Origin: a virus
Lineage: Duplodnaviria > Heunggongvirae > Uroviricota > Caudoviricetes
DNA length: 25,518 nt
IMG/VR virus record: IMGVR_UViG_3300045988_091615
Coordinates: 1-25,518 of that record
Strand: one strand, 5' to 3'
The notes beneath the pieces were generated by a model. It was not told the origin of the DNA. It ran no database searches and saw nothing but the letters and a program-made list of their open reading frames with translations. The translations under genes were made by a program, and so were the position numbers. The stretch's first letter is position 1, and the number at the start of each line of letters is the position of its first letter. Shown here piece after piece: positions 2-21,810 of the stretch.

Positions 2-118
2 GCCATGATTCGCCATATCACAAAGGCGGAGTTATCCCGCGTGGAGATAGTCGAGCTGCTCAGTCAGGAGTCGGAAAAATTTCACAATATCGGATTGTCT
101 CGCGGGGAGGTGCTTTGA
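2..118 (+). CDS. 3' end of an upstream early-operon gene (5'-partial; start lies outside the window)
   Basis: Frame 2 is open from the window edge and ends at TGA 116-118, overlapping the next ATG at 118 (TGATG coupling). The translation (...[38 protein letters not shown]) is protein-like, whereas frame 1 over the same bases is Gly/Arg/Ser-rich. Confidence 0.4.
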
Positions 119-420
119 TGTCCTGTTCTCATTCAGTTGTATTACTGAATAACGCCTTAAAAATCGCCGTTATGAAAAATGGCGATTTGTCTCTTATTCA
201 ACTTTGTCTTGATAAAGAAAAACGCGACATAACTGAATCTGTTATCGCGATTTATCAGAATGAATTAAACCTCCTGTCTGATGTGGTCAATTTACTTGTT
301 AAACGCGCTGTGTTCCACAAGCAAATTTCCTCAGTGGATGAACTGACAAAATTAACGACAGAACTCGCCAGTTATTGCGCTGATGTATCCAGGAAACTTA
401 ACGATAAAAGGAGCTGGTAA
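118..420 (+). CDS. Hypothetical early-operon protein (~100 aa), AT-rich relative to neighbours
   Basis: ATG at 118 preceded by GGGGAGG (104-110) at 7-nt spacing. The ORF track start at 115 is a TTG one codon upstream. Stop TAA 418-420 overlaps the next ATG at 420. No motif recognised. Confidence 0.6.
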   Translation: MSCSHSVVLLNNALKIAVMKNGDLSLIQLCLDKEKRDITESVIAIYQNELNLLSDVVNLLVKRAVFHKQISSVDELTKLTTELASYCADVSRKLNDKRSW

Positions 421-644
421 TGCCGGACAACGTAGATTTTATTCAGGAACAACAGGCTGAATTACTGGAGCGCCAGATTAACGCGGCAAGGGTAAAACAT
501 TGCGGTGCTTCTGCGCTGGTTTGCGAAGAGTGTGACGCGCCAATACCTGCTGCCCGTCGTGCGGCTTATCCGTCAGCCACGCGTTGTGTTTCCTGTCAGT
601 CAGTCTTTGAAGCAAAAAACAAACATTACCGGAGAATGGCATGA
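420..644 (+). CDS. TraR/DksA-family C4-type zinc-finger protein (small phage early protein)
   Basis: 74 aa with paired Cys motifs (CEECDAPIP ... CVSCQ) typical of phage TraR/DksA-like zinc fingers. Start overlaps the upstream stop (TAATG) and stop overlaps the downstream start (ATGA), indicating translational coupling. Confidence 0.75.
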   Translation: MPDNVDFIQEQQAELLERQINAARVKHCGASALVCEECDAPIPAARRAAYPSATRCVSCQSVFEAKNKHYRRMA

Positions 645-916
645 GCATTCGTATTGAAATTGGCGAACGTTATGTGGTTACCAGTGACAGCTTCCAGTTT
701 ATTCTCCACGAGAAAAAGAGAGCGGAAAGCGGTAAAAACGCCGGTCAGGAGTGGCTGGCGGTGGTTGGTTATTACCCGAAATTAAGCCAGCTCGTTTCCG
801 GCCTGATGCATCACGATATTCTGACCGGAAGCGCAAAGTCTTTTGCTGATTTAAACGCGCAGGTTGAGCAACTCAGCAAGCGTTGTTCAGAGGCTTTTGG
901 CTCATATGGCCGTTAA
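641..916 (+). CDS. Hypothetical early-operon protein (91 aa)
   Basis: ATG 641 overlaps the preceding stop. ORF ends TAA 914-916, overlapping the start of gene A. Same orientation and tight coupling as the flanking early genes. Confidence 0.6.
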   Translation: MSIRIEIGERYVVTSDSFQFILHEKKRAESGKNAGQEWLAVVGYYPKLSQLVSGLMHHDILTGSAKSFADLNAQVEQLSKRCSEAFGSYGR

Positions 917-3182
917 AGCCTCCGGGCGTTTTGTCCCTCCGTCAGCATTTGCCGCAGGCACCGGTAAGGCGTTTACCGGTGCTTATGCATGGAACGCGCC
1001 ACGCGAGGCTGTCGGGCGCGAAAGACCTCTTACACGTGACGAGATGCGTCAGGTGCAAGGTGTTTTATCCACGATTAACCGCCTGCCTTACTTTTTGCGC
1101 TCGCTGTTTACTTCACGCTATGACTACATCCGGCGCAATAAAAGCCCGGTGCACGGGTTTTATTTCCTCACATCCACTTTTCAGCGTCGTTTATGGCCGC
1201 GCATTGAGCGCGTGAATCAGCGCCATGAAATGAACACCGACGCGTCGTTACTGTTTCTGGCAGAGCGTGACCACTATGCGCGCCTGCCGGGAATGAATGA
1301 CAAGGAGCTGAAAAAATTTGCCGCCCGTATCTCATCGCAGCTTTTCATGATGTATGAGGAACTCTGCGATGCCTGGGTGGATGCCCATGGCGAAAAAGAA
1401 TCGCTGTTTACGGATGAGGCGCAGGCTCACCTGTATGGTCATGTTGCTGGCGCTGCACGTGCTTTCAATATTTCCCCGCTCTACTGGAAAAAATACCGTA
1501 AAGGACAGATGACCACGAGGCAGGCATATTCTGCCATTGCCCGCCTGTTTAACGATGAGTGGTGGACTCATCAGCTTAAAGGCCAGCGTATGCGCTGGCA
1601 TGAGGCGTTACTGATTGCTGTCGGGGAGGTCAATAAAGACCGTTCTCCTTATGCCAGTAAACATGCCATTCGTGATGTGCGTGCGCGCCGCCAGGCAAAT
1701 CTGGAATTTCTTAAATCGTGTGACCTTGAAAACAGGGAAACAGGCGAGCGCATCGACCTTATCAGTAAGGTGATGGGCAGTATTTCTAATCCTGAAATTC
1801 GCCGGATGGAGCTGATGAACACCATTGCCGGTATTGAGCGTTACGCCGCCGCAGAGGGTGATGTGGGGATGTTTATCACGCTTACCGCGCCGTCAAAGTA
1901 TCACCCGACACGTCAGGTCGGAAAAGGCGAAAGTAAAACCGTTCAGCTTAATCACGGCTGGAACGATGAGGCATTTAATCCAAAGGATGCGCAGCGTTAT
2001 CTCTGCCGTATCTGGAGCCTGATGCGCACGGCATTCAAGGATAATGATTTACAGGTCTACGGTTTGCGTGTCGTCGAGCCACACCACGACGGAACGCCGC
2101 ACTGGCATATGATGCTTTTTTGTAATCCGCGCCAGCGTAACCAGATTATCGAAATCATGCGTCGCTATGCGCTCAAAGAGGATGGCGACGAAAGAGGAGC
2201 CGCGCGAAACCGTTTTCAGGCAAAACACCTTAACCGGGGCGGTGCTGCGGGGTATATCGCGAAATACATCTCAAAAAACATCGACGGCTATGCACTGGAT
2301 GGTCAGTTCGATAACGATACCGGCAGGCCGCTTAAAGATACTGCCGCGGCTGTTACCGCATGGGCGTCAACGTGGCGCATTCCGCAATTTAAAACGGTTG
2401 GCCTGCCGACAATGGGGGCTTACCGTGAACTACGCAAATTGCCTCGTGGCGTCAGCATTGCTGATGAGTTTGACGAACGCGTCGAGGCTGCACGCGCCGC
2501 CGCAGACAGTGGTGATTTTGCGTTGTATATCAGCGCGCAGGGTGGGGCAAATGTCCCGCGCGATTGTCAGACTGTCAGGGTCGCCCGTAGCCCGTCGGAT
2601 GACGTTAACGAGTACGAGGAAGAAGTCGAGAGAGTGGTCGGCATTTACGCGCCGCATCTCGGCGCGCGTCATATTCATATCACCAGAACGACGGACTGGC
2701 GCATTGTGCCGAAAGTTCCGGTCGTTGAGCCTTTGACTTTAAAAAGCGGCATCGCCGCGCCTCGGAGTCCTGTCAATAACTGTGGAAAGCTCACCGGTGG
2801 TGATACTTCGTTACCGGCTCCCACGCCTTCTGAGCACGCCGCAGCAGTGCTTAATCTGGTTGATGACGGTGTTATCGAATGGTATGACCCGGAGGTCGTG
2901 AGGGCGCTCAGGGGCGCATTAAAACACGGCCTGAGAAGACCAAACCGTCAGCAAAGAAACGGAAGCCCGTTAAAACCGCATGAAATAGCGCCATCGGCCA
3001 GACTGACCCGGTCGGAAAGAATGCAAATTACCCGTATCCGCGTTGACCTTGCTCAGAACGGTATCAGGCCTCAGAGATGGGAGCTTGAGGCGCTGGCGCG
3101 TGGCGCGACTGTAAATTACGACGGTAAAAAATTCACGTATCCGGTCGCTGATGAGTGGCCGGGATTCACAATGGACCATTGA
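906..3182 (+). CDS. A: Rolling-circle replication initiation endonuclease, P2 gpA family
   Basis: Long ORF with the characteristic GpA motifs (HWHMMLF; AGYIAKYISKNIDGY with catalytic tyrosines). First ATG is at 906 with GAGG upstream; the ORF-track start at 864 is a TTG. From 906 the product is 758 aa, close to the ~761 aa I recall for P2 A. Confidence 0.9.
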   Translation: MAVKASGRFVPPSAFAAGTGKAFTGAYAWNAPREAVGRERPLTRDEMRQVQGVLSTINRLPYFLRSLFTSRYDYIRRNKSPVHGFYFLTSTFQRRLWPRIERVNQRHEMNTDASLLFLAERDHYARLPGMNDKELKKFAARISSQLFMMYEELCDAWVDAHGEKESLFTDEAQAHLYGHVAGAARAFNISPLYWKKYRKGQMTTRQAYSAIARLFNDEWWTHQLKGQRMRWHEALLIAVGEVNKDRSPYASKHAIRDVRARRQANLEFLKSCDLENRETGERIDLISKVMGSISNPEIRRMELMNTIAGIERYAAAEGDVGMFITLTAPSKYHPTRQVGKGESKTVQLNHGWNDEAFNPKDAQRYLCRIWSLMRTAFKDNDLQVYGLRVVEPHHDGTPHWHMMLFCNPRQRNQIIEIMRRYALKEDGDERGAARNRFQAKHLNRGGAAGYIAKYISKNIDGYALDGQFDNDTGRPLKDTAAAVTAWASTWRIPQFKTVGLPTMGAYRELRKLPRGVSIADEFDERVEAARAAADSGDFALYISAQGGANVPRDCQTVRVARSPSDDVNEYEEEVERVVGIYAPHLGARHIHITRTTDWRIVPKVPVVEPLTLKSGIAAPRSPVNNCGKLTGGDTSLPAPTPSEHAAAVLNLVDDGVIEWYDPEVVRALRGALKHGLRRPNRQQRNGSPLKPHEIAPSARLTRSERMQITRIRVDLAQNGIRPQRWELEALARGATVNYDGKKFTYPVADEWPGFTMDH

Positions 3183-3291: not shown

Positions 3292-4623
3292 ATGAACAAT
3301 AACAGTAAGAAAACTTTGAGTAAGAAAAGAACCAAGAAAGCCAAAAAGAAGTCGCTTACCCCTGAACAAAAAGCATTGCAAGCAGAACAAGCAGCAAAAA
3401 AAGCGCAAATTATAGAGAATAGGCGCTCTATTACAGCTCATGCTATTAATCTTTTTCAGCAATATACAGCACTCCGTAAAAAAGGATTAGATAGTTCCAC
3501 TGCTACTTTGCAAGCTTATGCTGATTATGAAAAAGTACATGGACATAAATTCCTTAGTTCTGTCTCTATGTGGACAAAAATCAAAACTGAAGCAGGGATT
3601 CGGATCTATGATCTTGAGAGACAAGATAGCCGTAAATCGCTTAATCTTGCTAAGATTCCGACCCGTTTAGAGGCTAAGCGTAGTGTACTGACACAGAACC
3701 AAAAGAAAGTACATAACCAGAATGCAAATACATTACGCTTAATCGGTGGCAAAAAGCTACCTGTAACATCTATGGGGCTTATTGTATGCCCTGTCTGCGA
3801 GATACATATAAAAGATAGTGCTATAGAGTGGCATTTACGACACAACCACGTAGATCATGTAGATAACCCGTTTACTAACCCTATAGTAGCTCCTATTGAT
3901 ACCTTAGAAGAGACTGTAGAAATACGTGATCTACTAATTGGTGATAAAACACTTCCGATTAAATCTAGTACTATTAATATGGGGAGTTACAAGAAAGATA
4001 AACGTTATTTTAATAAGCAAGTTTATCAAACGGCATTGCTAACAATGACACAATCAGAAGCGTGGAAACTCGCGACTGATGAAGAATCTAGTATGACTTT
4101 TTTAAGCAATCAGTACATAAGTCCATTAACATCACCCGAACCCAATAATGAAATATCTCTTATCATGGATGGAACGGATATAGCCATTAATGAAAGTCTA
4201 ACTAATCCTTTCAAGGCCGCAAACGATACCTGTGCTACAGGACGAACAGTCGAGGTTACTCACAAAGTCCGTCATGCTGGAGATCAAGCTGATTTCAAAC
4301 GCCGTGTTTGGGATAACTTCAATGGCAGATGTGCTATTACTGGCTATCCATTGCCAGAGGGGATATTGGAAGCCGCACATATTGAAGCAATAACAGAATC
4401 AGCAAATAATAACACATCTAATGGCCTGTTACTTGAAGTAAGTTTACACCGAATGTTTGATAAAGGATTAATGGGGATTAATCCAGAGGACTTAACGGTT
4501 CATTTCTCTATTAATTGTATCCACAAAACTATGTTTGAGGGTAAAACTCTACAACCGCATCATGTAGAACTTGATGCTGGGAAGTTGATGACAAAATGGA
4601 AAAAGTTCCATGATAAGCGTTAA
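3292..4623 (+). CDS. Cargo protein with C-terminal HNH_2-type nuclease domain, internal C2H2-like zinc-finger motif and Lys-rich N-terminus (candidate defence effector)
   Basis: 443-aa ORF, ATG 3292 with AAGG 8 nt upstream, markedly AT-rich. C-terminus carries the HNH_2 signature GRCAITG...EAAHIEA...SNGLLLEVSLHRMFDKG. Mid-protein CPVCEIHIKDSAIEWHLRHNH resembles a C2H2 finger. N-terminal ~45 aa are highly basic (KKTLSKKRTKKAKKK...). Confidence 0.8.
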   Translation: MNNNSKKTLSKKRTKKAKKKSLTPEQKALQAEQAAKKAQIIENRRSITAHAINLFQQYTALRKKGLDSSTATLQAYADYEKVHGHKFLSSVSMWTKIKTEAGIRIYDLERQDSRKSLNLAKIPTRLEAKRSVLTQNQKKVHNQNANTLRLIGGKKLPVTSMGLIVCPVCEIHIKDSAIEWHLRHNHVDHVDNPFTNPIVAPIDTLEETVEIRDLLIGDKTLPIKSSTINMGSYKKDKRYFNKQVYQTALLTMTQSEAWKLATDEESSMTFLSNQYISPLTSPEPNNEISLIMDGTDIAINESLTNPFKAANDTCATGRTVEVTHKVRHAGDQADFKRRVWDNFNGRCAITGYPLPEGILEAAHIEAITESANNNTSNGLLLEVSLHRMFDKGLMGINPEDLTVHFSINCIHKTMFEGKTLQPHHVELDAGKLMTKWKKFHDKR

Positions 4624-4650
4624 CATGACTTCTTCTGGTGCAGAGAGGCG

Positions 4651-4679
4651 TTAGATTTAATTATGTATTATGATTTAAT
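4651..4679 (+). promoter_or_regulatory. Possible sigma70-like promoter for the second cargo gene
   Basis: TTAGAT (4651-4656), 17-nt spacer, TTTAAT (4674-4679) in the AT-rich 91-bp gap between the two cargo ORFs. Weak match, by eye only. Confidence 0.2.
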
Positions 4680-4714
4680 TTTGGGTGTGATTTGTTATAT
4701 GGGGAATAGATTAT

Positions 4715-5134
4715 ATGGTGACGCTTGATATGGTTTATTGGAAATTTGGTTATGCTTCGGAAGCAGCTCAATTACTGGAGACTGAGTTGATAAATGTTAT
4801 CACTGAGTATGATATGAGTCAGGGGAAAGATATACAGTCGCTGAAAAAACAGTTTTTAGAAATGGATAAATACACGCTGGGTAAATTGAATTACGCACTG
4901 AAGTCTAGGATGGTGGAGGATGCTGATACACTGGAGTATGTGTCAGATGCTCTTAAAGCCAGAAACTACTTGGCACATGATTTTTTTCGCGCTCATAATT
5001 TTGCCAAAGATACCCCAGCAGGACGGCAAAAAATGCTTGATGATTTACAAAAAACACACAACATTATTTTTGAGGCATACCGGAAAGTACTGCTAATTAG
5101 TGGCATCAAAATTCCACCTTTAGAAGATGATTAG
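4715..5134 (+). CDS. Small cargo protein (139 aa) with RNxxxH motif; possible HEPN-like RNase or partner/immunity protein
   Basis: ATG 4715 (alternative ATG at 4730), GGGGA 9 nt upstream, AT-rich, co-oriented with the HNH ORF. Contains KARNYLAHDFF, which fits the HEPN Rx4-6H (RNxxxH) signature. A short motif only. Confidence 0.65.
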   Translation: MVTLDMVYWKFGYASEAAQLLETELINVITEYDMSQGKDIQSLKKQFLEMDKYTLGKLNYALKSRMVEDADTLEYVSDALKARNYLAHDFFRAHNFAKDTPAGRQKMLDDLQKTHNIIFEAYRKVLLISGIKIPPLEDD

Positions 5135-5449: not shown

Positions 5450-6484
5450 TCAGCCGTTGTCAGTGTCCAGTGAGTAGTTTTTAAAGCGGATGACCTCCTG
5501 ACCGAGCCAGCCGTTTATCTCGCGGATCCTGTCCTGTAACGGGATAAGCTCATTGCGGACAAAGACCTTTGCCACTTTCTCAATATCACCCAGCGACCCG
5601 ACGTTCTCCGGCTTGCCGCCCATCAACTGAAAGGGGATGCGGTGCGCGTCCAGCAGGTCAGCGGCGCTGGCTTTTTTGATATTAAAAAAATCGTCCTTCG
5701 TTGCCACTTCACTGAGCGGGATAATTTTAATGCCGTCAGCTTTCCCCTGCGGGGCATAGAGAAACAGGTTTTTAAAGTTGTTGCGGCCTTTCGACTTCAC
5801 CATGTTTTCGCGGAGCATTTCGATATCGTTGCGATCCTGCACGGCATCGGTGACGTACATGATGTATCCGGCATGCGCGCCGTTTTCGTAATACTTGCGG
5901 CGGAACAGCGTGGCCGACTCATTCAGCCAGGCAGAGTTAAGGGCGCTGAGATATTCCGGCAGGCCGTACAGCTCCTGATTAATATCCGGCTCCAGCAGGT
6001 GAAACACGGAGCCGGGCGCGAAAGGTGTCGGCTCGTTGAAGGACGGCACCCACCAGTAAACATCCTCTTCCACACCACGGCGGGTATATTTTGCCGGTGA
6101 GGTTTCCAGTCTGATGACCTTACCGGTGGTGCTGTAACGCTTTTCCAGAAACGCATTACCGAACACCAGAAAATCCAGCACAAAGCGGCTGAAATCCTGC
6201 TGGGAAAGCCACGGATGCGGGATAAATGTCGAGGCCAGAATATTACGTTTGACGTAAATCGGTGAGCTGTGATGCACGGCAGCACGCAGGCTTTTTGCCA
6301 GACCGGTAAAGCTGACCGGTGGCTCATACCATCTGCCGTTACTGATGCATTCGACGTAATCCAGAATGTCACGGCGGTCGAGTACCGGCACCGGCTCACC
6401 AAAGGTGAATGCCTCCATTTTCGGGGCGCTGGTGGTCATTGTTTTTGCCGCAGGTTGCGGTGTTTTCCCTTTTTTCTTGCTCAT
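5450..6484 (-). CDS. Q: Portal protein, P2 gpQ family
   Basis: 344 aa, the same length I recall for P2 Q, and recognisable as P2 portal sequence. Its ATG overlaps the P stop by one base (ATGA). Confidence 0.9.
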   Translation of the reverse strand: MSKKKGKTPQPAAKTMTTSAPKMEAFTFGEPVPVLDRRDILDYVECISNGRWYEPPVSFTGLAKSLRAAVHHSSPIYVKRNILASTFIPHPWLSQQDFSRFVLDFLVFGNAFLEKRYSTTGKVIRLETSPAKYTRRGVEEDVYWWVPSFNEPTPFAPGSVFHLLEPDINQELYGLPEYLSALNSAWLNESATLFRRKYYENGAHAGYIMYVTDAVQDRNDIEMLRENMVKSKGRNNFKNLFLYAPQGKADGIKIIPLSEVATKDDFFNIKKASAADLLDAHRIPFQLMGGKPENVGSLGDIEKVAKVFVRNELIPLQDRIREINGWLGQEVIRFKNYSLDTDNG

Positions 6485-14178: not shown

Positions 14179-14623
14179 GTTTAAGCGTTTTGAAGACCGG
14201 CTGACCGGACTGATTGAATCGCTGTCACCGTCAGGGCGTCGGCGACTGAGTGCCGAACTGGCGAAACGTCTGCGGCAGAGTCAGCAGCGTCGGGTGATGG
14301 CTCAGAAAGCCCCCGACGGCACACCCTACGCACCACGCCAGCAGCAGAGCGCCAGAAAAAAGACCGGTCGTGTTAAGCGAAAAATGTTTGCGAAACTTAT
14401 CACCAGTCGTTTTTTGCATATCCGCGCCAGCCCGGAACAGGCATCAATGGAATTTTACGGCGGGAAGTCGCCGAAAATCGCCAGTGTGCATCAGTTCGGT
14501 CTGTCGGAAGAAACCCGGAAAGACGGTAAGAAAATTGATTATCCGGCGCGTCCTCTGCTCGGCTTTACCGGTGAGGATGTGCAGATGATTGAAGAGATTA
14601 TCCTGGCTCACCTTGAGCGTTAG
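14171..14623 (+). CDS. S: Tail completion protein, P2 gpS family
   Basis: 150 aa; start overlaps the R stop; matches P2 S length and position. Confidence 0.85.
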   Translation: MNEFKRFEDRLTGLIESLSPSGRRRLSAELAKRLRQSQQRRVMAQKAPDGTPYAPRQQQSARKKTGRVKRKMFAKLITSRFLHIRASPEQASMEFYGGKSPKIASVHQFGLSEETRKDGKKIDYPARPLLGFTGEDVQMIEEIILAHLER

Positions 14624-14653
14624 TTTTATCCAGGCAGAGGCTGATGCGCAATT

Positions 14654-14688
14654 AAACATTGAGCGGCCATGCTGGTCGCTCAATGTTT
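14654..14688. terminator. Strong hairpin between convergent S and the S-V cargo gene (possible bidirectional terminator)
   Basis: Perfect 12-bp inverted repeat AAACATTGAGCG (14654-14665) / CGCTCAATGTTT (14677-14688) with an 11-nt loop, 31 nt after the S stop and 7 nt after the stop of the minus-strand cargo gene. T-tract weak on both strands. Confidence 0.5.
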
Positions 14689-14694
14689 AGAGGT

Positions 14695-15480
14695 TTATGA
14701 GTGATTTTTATTTGATGCTTTGTATTCTAAAACCTTCTTATTGGCGTAAAAGAATTTTGTATATGACAGGAATATAACCAGACCTGAAGTGAAATAGACG
14801 AGGGATAGTATTAATAATGCTTTTTTGTGACTGTTATTATCTTTAATCTCCTGGCTTAACCATTCGGAGTCCTCCTCGTTTAGCTGTAAGAGCTTATTGC
14901 AGGCGATCTCAGGAAGTGTGTCTTTTATAAATACGTTTCGTAGCCTCTTGCAATCGGCAAGGCTATAAGTTTTATTGAATTCAACTGTTTTATTGTTGAA
15001 GGATAAAAGAACTTTGTCACTATAAACATAGTACATCATATTTTTATATGGTATGCCTATGGCATCTCTTACTATAGCGGATTGTTTGTTGTGTATATAA
15101 CATGCGAGGAGAATGTAAAAAATACTGGCCAGAATTACAATTATTGTTTTAATTATGTGTGGTGGTTTTGTTATGTCACCCCAGATGCGAGTAAGGAAAA
15201 AATACGATGTTTTTAGTTTTCCATCAATCAGTCCCTGCTGTATCATTCTCACATTTTCAATGCCTGATACATTGATTCCGTTAATTATTTTAAATAGTTG
15301 AATGTCGCGCCACTCGCGGTCAAGTCTTTTTAATTTTTTGTCTGAATATCCAAAATTGAAATAATGTGCAATAAGCCTCATAAGGTTACTTTTACCAAAG
15401 CTAAAAAATGCTAATACTGCAAAGCTACAAAGGAAAAAAACGATTAGCCCCCACACATTAGTCACATTATAGCTGACCAT
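14695..15480 (-). CDS. Cargo: predicted three-helix membrane protein (261 aa), unknown function
   Basis: Minus-strand ORF with a strong RBS (AAGGAG 6 nt upstream of the ATG ending at 15480), very AT-rich. Three hydrophobic stretches (VWGLIVFFLCSFAVLAFFSF; IIKTIIVILASIFYILLACYI; ALLILSLVYFTSGLVIFLSY). Inserted in opposite orientation between S and V. Confidence 0.8.
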   Translation of the reverse strand: MVSYNVTNVWGLIVFFLCSFAVLAFFSFGKSNLMRLIAHYFNFGYSDKKLKRLDREWRDIQLFKIINGINVSGIENVRMIQQGLIDGKLKTSYFFLTRIWGDITKPPHIIKTIIVILASIFYILLACYIHNKQSAIVRDAIGIPYKNMMYYVYSDKVLLSFNNKTVEFNKTYSLADCKRLRNVFIKDTLPEIACNKLLQLNEEDSEWLSQEIKDNNSHKKALLILSLVYFTSGLVIFLSYTKFFYANKKVLEYKASNKNHS

Positions 15481-15563
15481 TACGCTCTCCTTGAATGTTG
15501 TCTGGTAGTTCTACAAATGAATCCAGATAGCATAACTTTTATATATTGTGCAATCTCACATGC

Positions 15564-16199
15564 ATGAACACTCTCGCAAATATTCAGGAACTCGCGCGCG
15601 CACTGCGCAACATGATTCGCACCGGCATTATCGTCGAAACCGACCTTAACGCCGGTCGCTGCCGTGTGCAGACCGGCGGCATGTGCACTGACTGGCTTCA
15701 GTGGCTGACCCATCGTGCCGGTCGTTCGCGCACATGGTGGGCACCTTCCGTGGGGGAGCAGGTGCTGATTCTGGCCGTGGGCGGTGAACTCGACACGGCG
15801 TTCGTTCTGCCGGGGATTTATTCCGGCGATAACCCCTCGCCGTCTGTGTCGGCGGATGCCCTGCATATCCGTTTCCCTGACGGGGCGGTGATTGAATATG
15901 AACCCGAAACCAGTGCACTCACGGTAAGCGGAATTAAAACGGCCAGCGTGACGGCTTCTGATTCTGTTACTGCCACGGTGCCGGTGGTCATGGTGAAAGC
16001 ATCAACCCGCGTCACCCTGGACACCCCGGAGGTGGTCTGCACCAACAGGCTGATTACCGGCACGCTGGAAGTGCAGAAGGGCGGGACGATGCGCGGCAAC
16101 ATTGAACACACCGGCGGTGAACTCTCATCAAACGGTAAGGTACTGCATACCCATAAACACCCCGGCGACAGCGGCGGCACAACCGGGAGTCCTTTATGA
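15564..16199 (+). CDS. V: Baseplate assembly/spike protein, P2 gpV family
   Basis: ATG 15564 gives 211 aa (MNTLANIQELARALRNMIRTG...); the track start at 15546 is a TTG. Stop overlaps the W start (ATGA). Confidence 0.88.
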   Translation: MNTLANIQELARALRNMIRTGIIVETDLNAGRCRVQTGGMCTDWLQWLTHRAGRSRTWWAPSVGEQVLILAVGGELDTAFVLPGIYSGDNPSPSVSADALHIRFPDGAVIEYEPETSALTVSGIKTASVTASDSVTATVPVVMVKASTRVTLDTPEVVCTNRLITGTLEVQKGGTMRGNIEHTGGELSSNGKVLHTHKHPGDSGGTTGSPL

Positions 16200-17986: not shown

Positions 17987-19996
17987 ATGAGCACGAAATT
18001 TAAAACCGTTATCACCACTGCCGGTGCAGCAAAGCTGGCAGCGGCAACCGCGCCGGGAGGGCGGAAGGTCAACATTACCACGATGGCCGTCGGGGATGGC
18101 GGTGGTAAATTGCCTGTCCCGGATGCCGGACAGACCGGGCTTATCCACGAAGTCTGGCGACATGCGCTGAACAAAATCAGCCAGGACAAACGAAACAGTA
18201 ATTATATTATCGCAGAGCTGGTTATTCCGCCGGAGGTGGGCGGTTTCTGGATGCGTGAGCTTGGCCTGTACGATGATGCTGGAACGTTAATTGCCGTGGC
18301 GAACATGGCCGAAAGTTATAAGCCAGCTCTTGCCGAAGGCTCAGGGCGTTCGCAGACCTGTCGCATGGTCATCATCGTCAGCAGTGTGGCCTCAGTGGAG
18401 CTGACCATTGACACCACAACGGTGATGGCGACGCAGGATTACGTTGATGACAAAATTGCAGAACATGAACAGTCACGACGTCACCCGGACGCCTCGCTGA
18501 CCGCAAAAGGTTTTACTCAGTTAAGCAGTGCGACCAACAGCACGTCTGAAACACTGGCCGCAACGCCGAAAGCGGTAAAGGCCGCGTATGACCTGGCTAA
18601 CGGGAAATATACCGCACAGGACGCCACCACAGCGCGAAAAGGCCTTGTCCAGCTCAGTAGTGCCACCAACAGCACGTCTGAAACGCTCGCCGCAACACCA
18701 AAAGCCGTTAAGACGGTAATGGATGAAACGAACAAAAAAGCGCCATTAAACAGCCCTGCACTGACCGGAACGCCAACGACGCCAACTGCGCGACAGGGAA
18801 CGAATAATACTCAGATCGCAAACACGGCTTTCGTTATGGCCGCGATTGCCGCCCTTGTAGACTCGTCGCCTGACGCACTGAATACGCTGAACGAGCTGGC
18901 GGCGGCGCTGGGCAATGACCCGAATTTTGCTACCACCATGACTAATGCGCTTGCGGGTAAGCAACCGAAAGATGCCACTTTGACGGCGCTGGCGGGGCTT
19001 GCTACTGCGGCAGACAGGTTTCCGTATTTTACGGGGAATGATGTTGCCAGCCTGGCGACCCTGACAAAAGTCGGGCGGGATATTCTGGCTAAATCGACCG
19101 TTGCCGCCGTTATCGAATATCTCGGTTTACAGGAAACGGTAAACCGAGCCGGGAACGCCGTGCAAAAAAATGGCGATACCTTGTCCGGTGGACTTACTTT
19201 TGAAAACGACTCAATCCTTGCCTGGATTCGAAATACTGACTGGGCGAAGATTGGATTTAAAAATGATGCCGATGGTGACACTGATTCATACATGTGGTTT
19301 GAAACGGGGGATAACGGCAATGAATATTTCAAATGGAGAAGCCGCCAGAGTACCACAACAAAAGACCTGATGACGTTGAAATGGGATGCACTAAATATTC
19401 TTGTTAATGCCGTCATTAATGGCTGTTTTGGAGTTGGTACGACGAATGCACTAGGTGGTAGCTCAATTGTTCTTGGTGATAATGATACCGGATTTAAACA
19501 GAATGGAGACGGTATTCTTGATGTTTATGCTAACAGTCAGCGAGTATTCCGTTTTCAGAATGGAGTGGCTATTGCTTTTAAAAATATTCAGGCAGGGGAT
19601 AGTAAAAAGTTCTCGCTATCCAGCTCTAACACATCCACGAAGAATATTACCTTTAATTTATGGGGTGCTTCCACCCGTCCAGTGGTTGCAGAGTTAGGCG
19701 ATGAGGCCGGATGGCATTTCTATAGCCAGCGAAATACAGATAACTCGGTAATATTTGCTGTTAACGGTCAGATGCAACCCAGCAACTGGGGGAATTTTGA
19801 TTCCCGCTATGTGAAAGATGTTCGCCTGGGTACGCGAGTTGTTCAATTGATGGCGCGAGGTGGTCGTTATGAAAAAGCCGGACACACGATTACCGGATTA
19901 AGAATCATTGGTGAAGTGGATGGCGATGATGAAGCCATCTTCAGGCCGATACAAAAATACATCAATGGCACATGGTATAACGTTGCGCAGGTGTAA
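17987..19996 (+). CDS. H: Tail fibre protein, P2 gpH family, with AT-rich C-terminal receptor-binding region
   Basis: 669 aa. N-terminal part is GC-rich P2-like; it contains tandem phage-tail-fibre repeats (QLSSATNSTSETLAATPKAVK twice). From about 19150 onward the composition drops to ~40% G+C, suggesting an exchanged distal module. Confidence 0.9.
   Translation: MSTKFKTVITTAGAAKLAAATAPGGRKVNITTMAVGDGGGKLPVPDAGQTGLIHEVWRHALNKISQDKRNSNYIIAELVIPPEVGGFWMRELGLYDDAGTLIAVANMAESYKPALAEGSGRSQTCRMVIIVSSVASVELTIDTTTVMATQDYVDDKIAEHEQSRRHPDASLTAKGFTQLSSATNSTSETLAATPKAVKAAYDLANGKYTAQDATTARKGLVQLSSATNSTSETLAATPKAVKTVMDETNKKAPLNSPALTGTPTTPTARQGTNNTQIANTAFVMAAIAALVDSSPDALNTLNELAAALGNDPNFATTMTNALAGKQPKDATLTALAGLATAADRFPYFTGNDVASLATLTKVGRDILAKSTVAAVIEYLGLQETVNRAGNAVQKNGDTLSGGLTFENDSILAWIRNTDWAKIGFKNDADGDTDSYMWFETGDNGNEYFKWRSRQSTTTKDLMTLKWDALNILVNAVINGCFGVGTTNALGGSSIVLGDNDTGFKQNGDGILDVYANSQRVFRFQNGVAIAFKNIQAGDSKKFSLSSSNTSTKNITFNLWGASTRPVVAELGDEAGWHFYSQRNTDNSVIFAVNGQMQPSNWGNFDSRYVKDVRLGTRVVQLMARGGRYEKAGHTITGLRIIGEVDGDDEAIFRPIQKYINGTWYNVAQV
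18518..18712 (+). repeat. Tandem in-frame 63-nt tail-fibre repeat units (period 132 nt) inside H
   Basis: Unit 18518-18580 and unit 18650-18712 are ~80% identical at nucleotide level and encode the same 21-aa motif. Consistent with the phage tail-fibre repeat family (Pfam Phage_fiber_2, as I recall). Confidence 0.8.
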
Positions 19997-19999
19997 GTT

Positions 20000-20527
20000 A
20001 TGCAGCATTTAAAGAACATTAAGTCAGGTAATCCAAAAACAAAAGAGCAATATCAGCTAACAAAGAATTTTGATGTTATCTGGTTATGGTCCGAAGACGG
20101 AAAAAACTGGTATGAGGAAGTGAAGAACTTTCAGCCAGACACAATAAAGATTGTTTACGATGAAAATAATATTATTGTCGCTATCACCAGAGATGCTTCA
20201 ACGCTTAATCCTGAAGGTTTTAGCGTTGTTGAGGTTCCTGATATTACCTCCAACCGACGTGCTGACGACTCAGGTAAATGGATGTTTAAGGATGGTGCTG
20301 TGGTTAAACGGATTTATACGGCAGATGAACAGCAACAACAGGCGGAATTACAGAAGGCAGCTTTGCTTTCCGAAGCTGAATCCGTAATTTTGCCGCTGGA
20401 GCGCGCTGTCAGGCTGAATATGGCAACAGATGAGGAACGCAGCCGACTGGAAGCATGGGAACGCTACAGCGTTCTGGTCAGTCGTGTGGATCCTGCAAAT
20501 CCTGAATGGCCGGAAATGCCACAATAA
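20000..20527 (+). CDS. G: Tail fibre assembly chaperone, P2 gpG / Tfa family
   Basis: 175 aa, ATG 4 nt after the H stop, AT-rich like the H C-terminus. Typical Tfa position and size. Confidence 0.85.
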
Positions 20528-20588
20528 GCTGTATAAACTCTGGTGTGAGCTCACATATCTATAACACAGAGTAACCCCTAATCTGACA

Positions 20589-20612
20589 GTCCGCTCTGTG
20601 CCAAGAGCGGAC
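20589..20612. other. Stable hairpin downstream of G (9-bp stem, 6-nt loop); not a canonical intrinsic terminator
   Basis: GTCCGCTCT (20589-20597) / AGAGCGGAC (20604-20612). No U-tract follows on either strand. Confidence 0.4.
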
Positions 20613-20717
20613 ATTGATAACATCAAGGCTCTCTGGTCAGAGGGGCTCAGGTCATTTACAGCATACAAAGAAAAAATTGAAATATTTTTCAAATAAACAC
20701 ATTGCAGGGCTTAGGCC

Positions 20718-21488
20718 TTACTCTTTAGCTCGTTTGGTCATCTCATTTGCTAACTGTGTAGACCAATAATGTTGACTCTTTGCTTCTAATATGAAAAGTA
20801 GCGCTCTCACACATTGTAGCTGAGCATGCACATAAGCATGAATATTACCAACTGAAGTAGGAACTAAGTGGGTTTCAGGTGTGTAGTAGTGGTAGATGCT
20901 CGTTTGTGAAGGATGAACATATTCGCTAAGTATGTCATAAGTCAGTTCAAAATCACTTTCCATCTGATTAGTCTGCTTCATCTCATCTTTATAGAGTTCG
21001 CGTAAAGCAGTCATCACATGCATACTGACAGCAAGTAGGTTTTCAAAACGATATTTAGCCTCCTCAGTAAACATGTAGTCGTTCGGGTCAAATACTCCTT
21101 TCTGAATCTTTTCTTGCTCTGACTTTTTAAATCGAGAACTATTCGTAAAGTTCAATATAACTTCGATAGCGTTATCTACACTTGCGTGGCCATTTTGGGT
21201 AGTCAAAATTTTCTCTACTTTCTTGTTTAAGAGTCGTGAGAAGGCATGAGTTTCAATCATTCCTCGGCTAACAATACAAGCGCTTTGGTATCGTTCGTTT
21301 TCGAGGAGGAGAAGCGCATCATCGAAGATGTCTATCTGCCTGTTCATAAGTAAATTGGCATAATTAACGAGATACAGTCCGCGGTCAGGGTTATGTGTTT
21401 TTTCGACAATTACACCATTAGTCTTGCTCAGCGCAGCTCTGGCGGCTTTTGCCTCATTCAGTCTCTGTTCTATAAGTTCTTTATACAT
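20718..21488 (-). CDS. Cargo: hypothetical soluble protein (256 aa), unknown function, at the P2 Z/fun position
   Basis: Minus-strand ORF, AAGGA upstream of the ATG ending at 21488, AT-rich, opposite orientation to the flanking G and FI. No domain recognised. Contains an Rx5H stretch (SRGMIETH), which is too loose to call HEPN. Confidence 0.8.
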   Translation of the reverse strand: MYKELIEQRLNEAKAARAALSKTNGVIVEKTHNPDRGLYLVNYANLLMNRQIDIFDDALLLLENERYQSACIVSRGMIETHAFSRLLNKKVEKILTTQNGHASVDNAIEVILNFTNSSRFKKSEQEKIQKGVFDPNDYMFTEEAKYRFENLLAVSMHVMTALRELYKDEMKQTNQMESDFELTYDILSEYVHPSQTSIYHYYTPETHLVPTSVGNIHAYVHAQLQCVRALLFILEAKSQHYWSTQLANEMTKRAKE

Positions 21489-21687
21489 GCTTTGTTTCCT
21501 TACAGGAGGATGTGTATCAACGAATAATCATTCCGCCTTTTGTCAGCTTGACTGTAAGGTATCATGCTGAAGTTAGCCATACAAAGCTCTGCCCATTATC
21601 AGTTTACCCAAAGCAGACTGTCAGATTTGATAGCGTTTGGGCTATGTAAATTGTCAGTCGGAAAATGAGTGAGTACAAATCAGGACA

Positions 21688-21716
21688 GGCGGGCGAATTG
21701 CCCGCCTTTTCTTTAT
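21688..21716 (+). terminator. Rho-independent terminator on the plus strand upstream of FI
   Basis: GGCGGGC (21688-21694) - GAATT - GCCCGCC (21700-21706) followed by TTTTCTTTAT. Canonical GC-rich stem plus U-tract on the plus strand only. Confidence 0.65.
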
Positions 21717-21810
21717 CTGTTGTTTCATCCACTGACCAGCCAGGTCAAATAGCGTCTCATGCACTGCCCAACAGAAAATAGTTGCACCCATTAACCACGG
21801 AGTTAAACGG

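Follow-up and report, generated by a model that had tools for sequence, protein, structure and literature searches.

The AT-rich gene between orf80 and orf82 of a P2-type phage: identity, history and possible role

A short gene that is much more AT-rich than the genes on either side of it raises the question of whether it is a foreign gene lately absorbed or a long-standing member of its operon. Such a gene is the 100-aa open reading frame at positions 118-420 of the window, by which we mean the whole 25,518-nucleotide stretch of viral DNA analyzed here (IMG/VR record IMGVR_UViG_3300045988_091615). The first-pass annotation of this DNA took the ORF for a moron in an otherwise GC-rich early operon, and for a candidate host-takeover or anti-defense factor.

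The gene and its setting

The window belongs to a P2-type (Peduovirus) phage and starts in the last part of the early operon. Its bases 1-1000 match 75 phage records at 90-99% identity, all of them Peduovirus, and its gene order, orf80-orf81-orf82-orf83-A, is that of the P2 annotation and of 38 IMG/VR loci. The features of the region are as follows.

2..118, plus strand: 3' part of the DUF2732 gene (P2 orf80 homologue), cut by the window edge (PF10809 E=8.4e-5 on the fragment; PHROG 128; P2 annotation)
106..110, plus strand: Shine-Dalgarno-like GGAGG, 7 nt ahead of ATG118 and within the orf80 3' end (read from the sequence)
116..120, plus strand: TGATG, overlap of orf80 stop and orf81 start (read from the sequence)
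118..420, plus strand: orf81 coding sequence, 100 aa, DUF5405 family, orthologue of P2 Orf81 by sequence
161..188, plus strand: inverted repeat of 11 bp within orf81, made up of K-I-A-V and N-G-D-L codons and probably incidental
418..422, plus strand: TAATG, overlap of orf81 stop and orf82 start (read from the sequence), with AAGGAG at 408-413
420..644, plus strand: orf82, TraR/DksA-type C4 zinc-finger protein (PF01258 E=2.9e-11; TIGR02419 78.3 bits)
641..916, plus strand: orf83, second DUF5405 gene (PF17399 E=2e-13)
906..3182, plus strand: gene A, rolling-circle replication nickase (tblastn 98% identity to P2 gpA; P2 annotation)

Sequence comparison identifies the ORF at 118-420 as the orthologue of phage P2 orf81, a gene already catalogued. 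Its protein is 89% identical to P2 Orf81 (NP_046792), and several E. coli and Salmonella phages, including the vB_EcoM-12474 phages, encode exactly the same protein (100% identity); amino acid identity was 89-100% in 73 of the 75 Peduovirus records and 76% in the remaining two. P2 Orf81 and its Peduovirus orthologues (Wphi, L-413C, fiAA91-ss and others) have the same length, the same slot between orf80 and orf82 and the same TGATG and TAATG junctions, and the window copy, with its N-terminal 'MSCSH...' allele and 'CADVSRKLNDKRSW' tail variant, shows no essential difference from them. At the 50% identity level, the orf81-type branch comprises 19 representatives among 1.84 billion proteins.

The protein matches Pfam DUF5405 (PF17399) with 104.7 bits (E=3.5e-30, profile positions 1-87 of 88) against a gathering cutoff of 21.6, and PHROG 265 from end to end (E=9e-54, positions 1-99 of 99). 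No function for orf81, DUF5405 or DUF2732 is recorded in the searchable literature, whose entries read only 'unknown', among them a comparative paper that gives Orf81 as such (PMC3091744). Searches of NCBIfam and of the PADLOC defense proteins returned no match for orf81 or orf83, and a PDB sequence search with orf81 returned nothing significant (best E=0.016, a siderophore synthetase).

The zinc-finger gene and A had been named as bare neighbors of the ORF, an oversight in that orf83 (641-916) lies between them. P2 Orf82 binds RNA polymerase at the DksA site and inhibits rrnB P1, and the other small ORFs of the P2 operon were given as of unknown function in the same work (PMC9239242).

Several unusual arrangements of these genes were encountered. 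Two natural Orf81-Orf82 fusions occur, one of 175 aa (P0113; 74 member sequences, 10 contigs) with a 1-nt deletion near the orf81 3' end and one of 167 aa (P0111) with a small in-frame deletion across the junction, and three apparent Orf80-Orf81 'fusions' (P0003, P0032 and P0064) are frameshifted read-throughs. As Rosetta-stone evidence of interaction both kinds were set aside as too weak, consisting of frameshifts and small deletions. Recurrent 157-aa orf83-type proteins (P0180, P0188, P0228 with 104 member sequences, and others) carry DUF5405 followed by a C-terminal DUF7415.

The reading frame of orf81 runs from ATG118 to TAA418-420. A TTG at 115 appears as an alternative start in the ORF listing, but ATG118 is the better start because GGAGG at 106-110 sits 7 nt upstream of it. 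The orf80 stop is TGA116-118 and the orf82 start ATG420-422, so that stop and start overlap at both ends of orf81, as proposed in the first-pass annotation; the same holds in most orthologous loci, with the TAATG junction common to P2 and many relatives and TGATG-like overlaps also seen. Farther downstream, the start of gene A overlaps the end of orf83 by 11 nt. We propose that orf81 would be translated by coupling from the early (Pe) polycistronic transcript, with the Shine-Dalgarno sequence and start of each gene in the series orf80, orf81, orf82, orf83 and A embedded in the end of the preceding one.

No other ORF of at least 30 aa lies within 118-420 on either strand, and all 45 distinct orf81-type proteins drawn from the loci are encoded by uninterrupted ORFs. 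These intact frames, the purifying dN/dS ratio and the confident AlphaFold2 model (both given below) establish orf81 as a real protein-coding gene. A consensus scan of positions 1-1200 found no sigma-70-like promoter site, and a scan for terminator-like sites gave two where 1.7 were expected by chance; at the level of consensus scans, orf81 lacks its own transcription signals.

A cis-acting DNA or RNA element, such as the 161-188 hairpin or a nucleoid-protein site, might account for the AT-rich stretch, with translation incidental. The stem is a perfect-looking 11 bp (-13.8 kcal/mol), and low GC is conserved at the nucleotide level. The stem is, however, a product of codon complementarity, the Ile-Ala codons (ATCGCC) being complementary to the Gly-Asp codons (GGCGAT) of the first beta-hairpin, and among 14 orthologues it was not consistently kept, having been lost in L004, L046, L014, L063 and L095. 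Against such an element also stand the chance number of terminator-like sites, an Rfam search whose best match reached only 18.3 bits, far from the gathering score of 80.4, and the conserved frame with dN/dS below 1. We regard the idea as largely refuted and scarcely credible.

Base composition and distribution across P2-like phages

The AT-richness of the ORF was confirmed. Both GC and GC3 of orf81 are 37.6%, while GC is 51.3% in the orf80 fragment, 50.7% in orf82, 48.2% in orf83, 53.9% in gene A and 52.3% in the window as a whole, and only 7.2% of 303-nt windows are equally AT-rich. For the same protein written in the core-gene codon usage of the phage, the expected GC is 48.8% (z = -6.8) and the expected GC3 64.6% (z = -5.9). 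Because the observed values fall so far below this expectation, the deficit comes mostly from AT-ending codons and not from amino acid composition. The description of the rest of the early operon as GC-rich fits the neighbors, at 48-54%, but is overstated for the operon as a whole, since in P2 itself cox has 46% GC and B 43.5%, with orf81 at 37.3%. The early operon is thus uneven in GC, and orf81 is its minimum.

The anomaly recurs in relatives. In all 42 loci with both genes, orf81 has a lower GC content than gene A (mean 38.8% versus 53.6%); the orf81 values lie at 35-43% in 40 of them, and the full range is 35-49%. In the loci checked by hand, no gene of the B-to-A module falls below orf81 in GC, although ties occur; this includes orthologues at 25-38% amino acid identity. 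Low GC that persists over the whole divergence of orf81 is no mark of recent acquisition, and we conclude that it is an old trait of the family, brought about mainly by AT-ending codons. Nor would fast evolution alone be a sufficient cause of low GC3, since gene B is low in GC3 too, yet highly conserved.

The sole low-GC exceptions are two distant orf81-type genes at 49% GC (L083:4960-5265 and L098:4147-4488), in loci whose gpA identity is 58-61%. Both loci have about 700-1250 bp of unclassified sequence between the small genes and A.

Low-GC stretches of the window (303-nt windows with GC of at most 42%) occur at its 5' end, where orf81 lies, and in three further regions. The interval from gene A to the portal gene (5450-6484, minus strand), which in P2 holds orf91, tin and old, contains two AT-rich ORFs at 3292-5134. 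The first (443 aa, 37.8% GC) has an HNH_2 domain and PADLOC HNH matches and the second (139 aa) a weak PD-Lambda-3_B match; judged by these matches, the pair is probably defense-type cargo. In the late region, adjacent AT-rich ORFs of 260 and 127 aa (14695-15866, minus strand) have no Pfam match and sit at a low-GC island of 14508-15663. An AT-rich 255-aa ORF with a DUF5677 domain (20718-21488, minus strand) falls in a low-GC stretch near the tail-fiber genes (19181-21750), where it may represent cargo corresponding to the Z/fun locus of P2.

Every one of the 75 phage records matching the region has orf81. A gene A of at least 90% identity was found in 77 records, one of which is only a 90-aa fragment in an unrelated phage, namely Aeromonas phage AP1 (MT713136, 254 kb), where positions 242698-242967 encode 90 aa that are 100% identical to gpA residues 540-629; the fragment in this jumbo-phage record may stem from contamination of the assembly or from a very recent transfer. 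The orf80-orf83 block (1-916) was found in 1603 of 5426 complete E. coli genomes (about 30%), and in 1588 of these 1603 at 80% cover or more. An E. coli prophage (NZ_OZ392446, 1485697-1486844) has an interrupted block that matches in two pieces over 1148 bp instead of 916 and holds an extra annotated hypothetical protein.

Beyond the genus the picture differs. Phage 186 has no orf81-type gene, its order being DUF2732, TraR, an RNase T-like gene, DUF5405 (orf83), a PAPS-reductase-like gene and A, and in the 186 record the small ORFs that lie from dhr to A are marked non-essential. For a wider sample we used 80 IMG/VR loci with a P2-type gpA (57-99% identity, found via gpA alignment), whose ORFs were classed by HMMs built from alignments of this analysis; 70 loci were readable after RepB. 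The orders after RepB were as follows.

DUF2732-orf81-TraR-orf83-A: 38 loci
DUF2732-orf83-A: 15 loci (gpA 74-77% identity)
DUF2732-TraR-A: 4 loci
DUF2732-TraR-orf83-A: 3 loci
others, including DUF2732-orf81-orf83(-A): 10 loci

The gene is accordingly present in 46 of the 70 P2-type replication modules and absent from 24. The absence is real, since in the loci without orf81 DUF2732 abuts orf83 or TraR and leaves no space for a further gene. Where orf81 occurs its slot is constant, following DUF2732, with few exceptions directly, and preceding TraR or orf83; this holds at 25-57% amino acid identity and with P2-type or 186-type immunity regions alike. That orf81 simply tracks the P2-type helicase loader RepB was ruled out, RepB occurring without it in 24 modules.

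Judged from these records, orf81 is nearly fixed in the genus Peduovirus and patchy across the wider P2-like family, and its absence from 186 and from 24 of the 70 modules supports its being dispensable at the family level. In our reading it is a long-standing member of the B-to-A replication and early module that is fixed in Peduovirus and was gained or lost elsewhere in P2-like lineages.

Local divergence, paralogy with orf83 and the moron question

Evolutionary rates were taken from seven Peduovirus genomes. For orf81, dN is 0.072, dS 0.29 and dN/dS 0.25 (ratio of means; pairwise values 0.13-0.39), while for orf80, orf82, orf83 and A, dN is about 0.005-0.013, dS 0.04-0.11 and dN/dS 0.08-0.13, and for gene B the values are 0.005, 0.16 and 0.03. 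The protein is thus under net purifying selection and the gene is a local divergence hotspot, with a dN about 14-fold above that of its neighbors. L26, K33, Y46 and D55 are conserved residues.

Two classes of N-terminal allele, 'MSCS[HR]SVVLLNNALK...' and 'MKNILLNNWLK...', show 21 differences over 45 aligned residues, and the 50 C-terminal residues that follow are identical in the two. Part of the divergence of orf81, by this comparison, appears to be recombinational swapping of the N-terminal half. The 'MKNILLNNWLK...' class is accompanied by an extra 81-aa ORF upstream.

An alternative haplotype occurs in Yersinia phage vB_YpM_117 (L004:2523-3282) and in three further loci (L034, L040 and L043). 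It has a different DUF2732-type gene, the extra 81-aa ORF, for which there is no Pfam match, and a replaced orf81 N-terminal half, while the orf81 C-terminal half and the downstream genes are still about 99% identical. Mosaicism of this kind points to a recombination breakpoint inside orf81.

BLASTP detects no similarity between orf81 and orf83, and their relationship is visible only by profile methods. Both genes exceed the Pfam threshold for DUF5405, and hhalign aligns the two families over 83 columns, nearly their full length (probability 94.9%, E=4.3e-8), with a conserved Tyr (Y46/Y45) and a conserved Cys (C87/C82) in register. By profile comparison, then, orf81 is a remote paralogue of the gene two places downstream, which favors duplication within the module over foreign import. 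We infer that a DUF5405 gene was duplicated inside the module to give orf81, and the present distribution may reflect duplication then loss, or repeated gain.

P2 Orf83 and 186 Orf83 share with Orf81 the Pfam family, the operon and a similar size (91 aa), and the orf83 model has a C-terminal helical hairpin at positions matching the Orf81 model, although its mean pLDDT is only 55.5. The orf83 type is far more widespread than orf81, with 690 versus 297 matches in a word-indexed search and a wide distribution in Enterobacteriaceae; it is also more conserved (dN 0.005 versus 0.072) and less AT-rich (46-50% GC in Peduovirus).

These results bear on the reading of orf81 as a moron, that is, a foreign AT-rich gene recently absorbed and serving as a host-takeover or anti-defense factor. 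Like morons in the Juhala/Hendrix sense, and like the P2 cargo genes tin/old and Z/fun, orf81 has deviant AT-rich composition and codon usage, its GC3 of 38% resembling that of the cargo ORFs at 3292-5134 (30% and 37%), and its presence across P2-like phages is patchy. Its raised dN and swapped N-terminal alleles would fit a target in an arms race, and the adjacent Orf82 is a proven reprogrammer of host RNA polymerase (PMC9239242). Unlike morons, orf81 has no promoter or terminator of its own, is embedded by overlaps at both ends in an essential operon and is nearly fixed in its genus. It is also old, keeping slot and low GC in relatives down to 25-35% amino acid identity, and paralogous to the nearby orf83, and its dN/dS of 0.25 indicates net purifying and not positive selection.

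Of the moron claim, then, the deviant composition and the dispensability across the family stand, while recent and autonomous acquisition does not, and we consider a moron origin unlikely. Moreover, orf81 is neither universal in P2-like early operons nor free of the composition anomaly in relatives, and no replication function is recorded for it, so that the findings named in the first-pass annotation as refuting its reading did not appear. Orf81 may have a host-directed or anti-defense role.

Predicted fold and possible roles

AlphaFold2, given a 15-sequence alignment, returned an Orf81 model with a mean pLDDT of 83.9, consisting of four strands (7-10, 14-18, 24-32 and 37-46) followed by two helices (49-66 and 73-98). 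A PDB fold search found no convincing match to a solved structure. Foldseek against BFVD returned small uncharacterized phage proteins, several labelled DUF5405, at TM 0.5-0.7. Proteins of about 85-100 aa from Salmonella phage vB_SalP_TR2, Morganella phage vB_MmoM_MP1 and the Lactobacillus phages Bacchae and LP65 are predicted to have a similar fold (BFVD E 2e-4 to 2e-3, TM 0.5-0.6), but they differ from Orf81 in having 11-18% sequence identity and belonging to other phage types, and all are uncharacterized. The poor orf83 model leaves a fold shared by orf81 and orf83 unsupported by structure.

The reading that we favor, with moderate confidence, is that orf81 is an old, non-autonomous and dispensable accessory member of the B-to-A module encoding a small binding protein. 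Its size, predicted fold and operon context suggest a small non-enzymatic binding module, in which the variable four-stranded N-terminal sheet would form a specificity surface and the conserved C-terminal helical hairpin would be a scaffold or oligomerization element. Early in lytic growth such a protein may modulate some partner from the host or the phage, much as Orf82, the TraR homologue, acts on RNA polymerase, and replication itself would not depend on it.

The position of orf81, always between RepB and gene A, raises the alternative that its product is a replication accessory protein assisting gpB in helicase loading or gpA in nicking at ori. The category assigned to PHROGs 265 and 154 is 'DNA, RNA and nucleotide metabolism', and Pfam gives a sub-threshold DnaB_2 match (E=0.18). 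That match scores 12 bits, far under the cutoff of 22, and searches of Pfam, NCBIfam and PDB (sequence and fold) found no homology to a characterized replication initiator or loader domain. Replication modules with RepB and A do without orf81 in the 24 cases described, and 186 replicates in its absence. The P2 mini-chromosome, moreover, reportedly needs A and ori and not orf80-83 (work of Liu, Saha and Haggard-Ljungquist in 1993), which counts against a role of this kind.

The product name 'replication initiation protein', as used in RefSeq and PHROG, has no traceable experimental basis and turns up, misspelt 'Relication initiation protein', on the UniRef cluster of orf83; the NCBI annotation of E. 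coli genomes names both proteins DUF5405 only. It appears to be a propagated label, and we judge a replication accessory role improbable.

A further alternative places the function of orf81 mainly in its translation, as a relay or attenuator whose poorly adapted, AT-rich codons would tune ribosome flow into the growth-arresting orf82 and the cis-acting A, the protein being secondary. The overlapping stop/start junctions are conserved, as is low GC3 even where the protein sequence has diverged. Among the five early genes of the window (orf80 fragment to A), orf81 has the lowest codon adaptation, 0.48 versus 0.57-0.68 for the others. According to the 186 record, translation of A requires translation to the end of orf84. 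A relay of this kind is difficult to reconcile with a protein that is under purifying selection, confidently folded in the AlphaFold2 model and conserved at the four residues named above, and many related phages join DUF2732 straight to TraR or orf83 with no spacer between them. We consider a mainly translational role quite improbable, more so than one in replication.

The divergence of the N-terminal half invites a bolder extension of the binding-protein reading. The orf81-type DUF5405 proteins might be rapidly diversifying specificity factors, for example inhibitors of a host defense, replication or transcription component, whose N-terminal beta-sheet is swapped as an allelic cassette. We offer this as speculation with little chance of being right; if it were true, the orf81/orf83 pair would represent an uncharacterized phage protein fold without a solved homologue.

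The importance of orf81 is limited in that it is a catalogued gene, carried by about 30% of complete E. coli genomes. Its low GC is not a sign of recent acquisition, which cautions against calling every AT-rich ORF a moron, and the name 'replication initiation protein' is spreading through RefSeq and PHROG annotation without visible support. Upstream of A, small early genes are mixed and matched from a set made up of the paralogues orf81 and orf83 with DUF2732 and TraR. The prevalence of orf81 in E. coli prophages would lend it added interest should a host function prove to be the target of its product.
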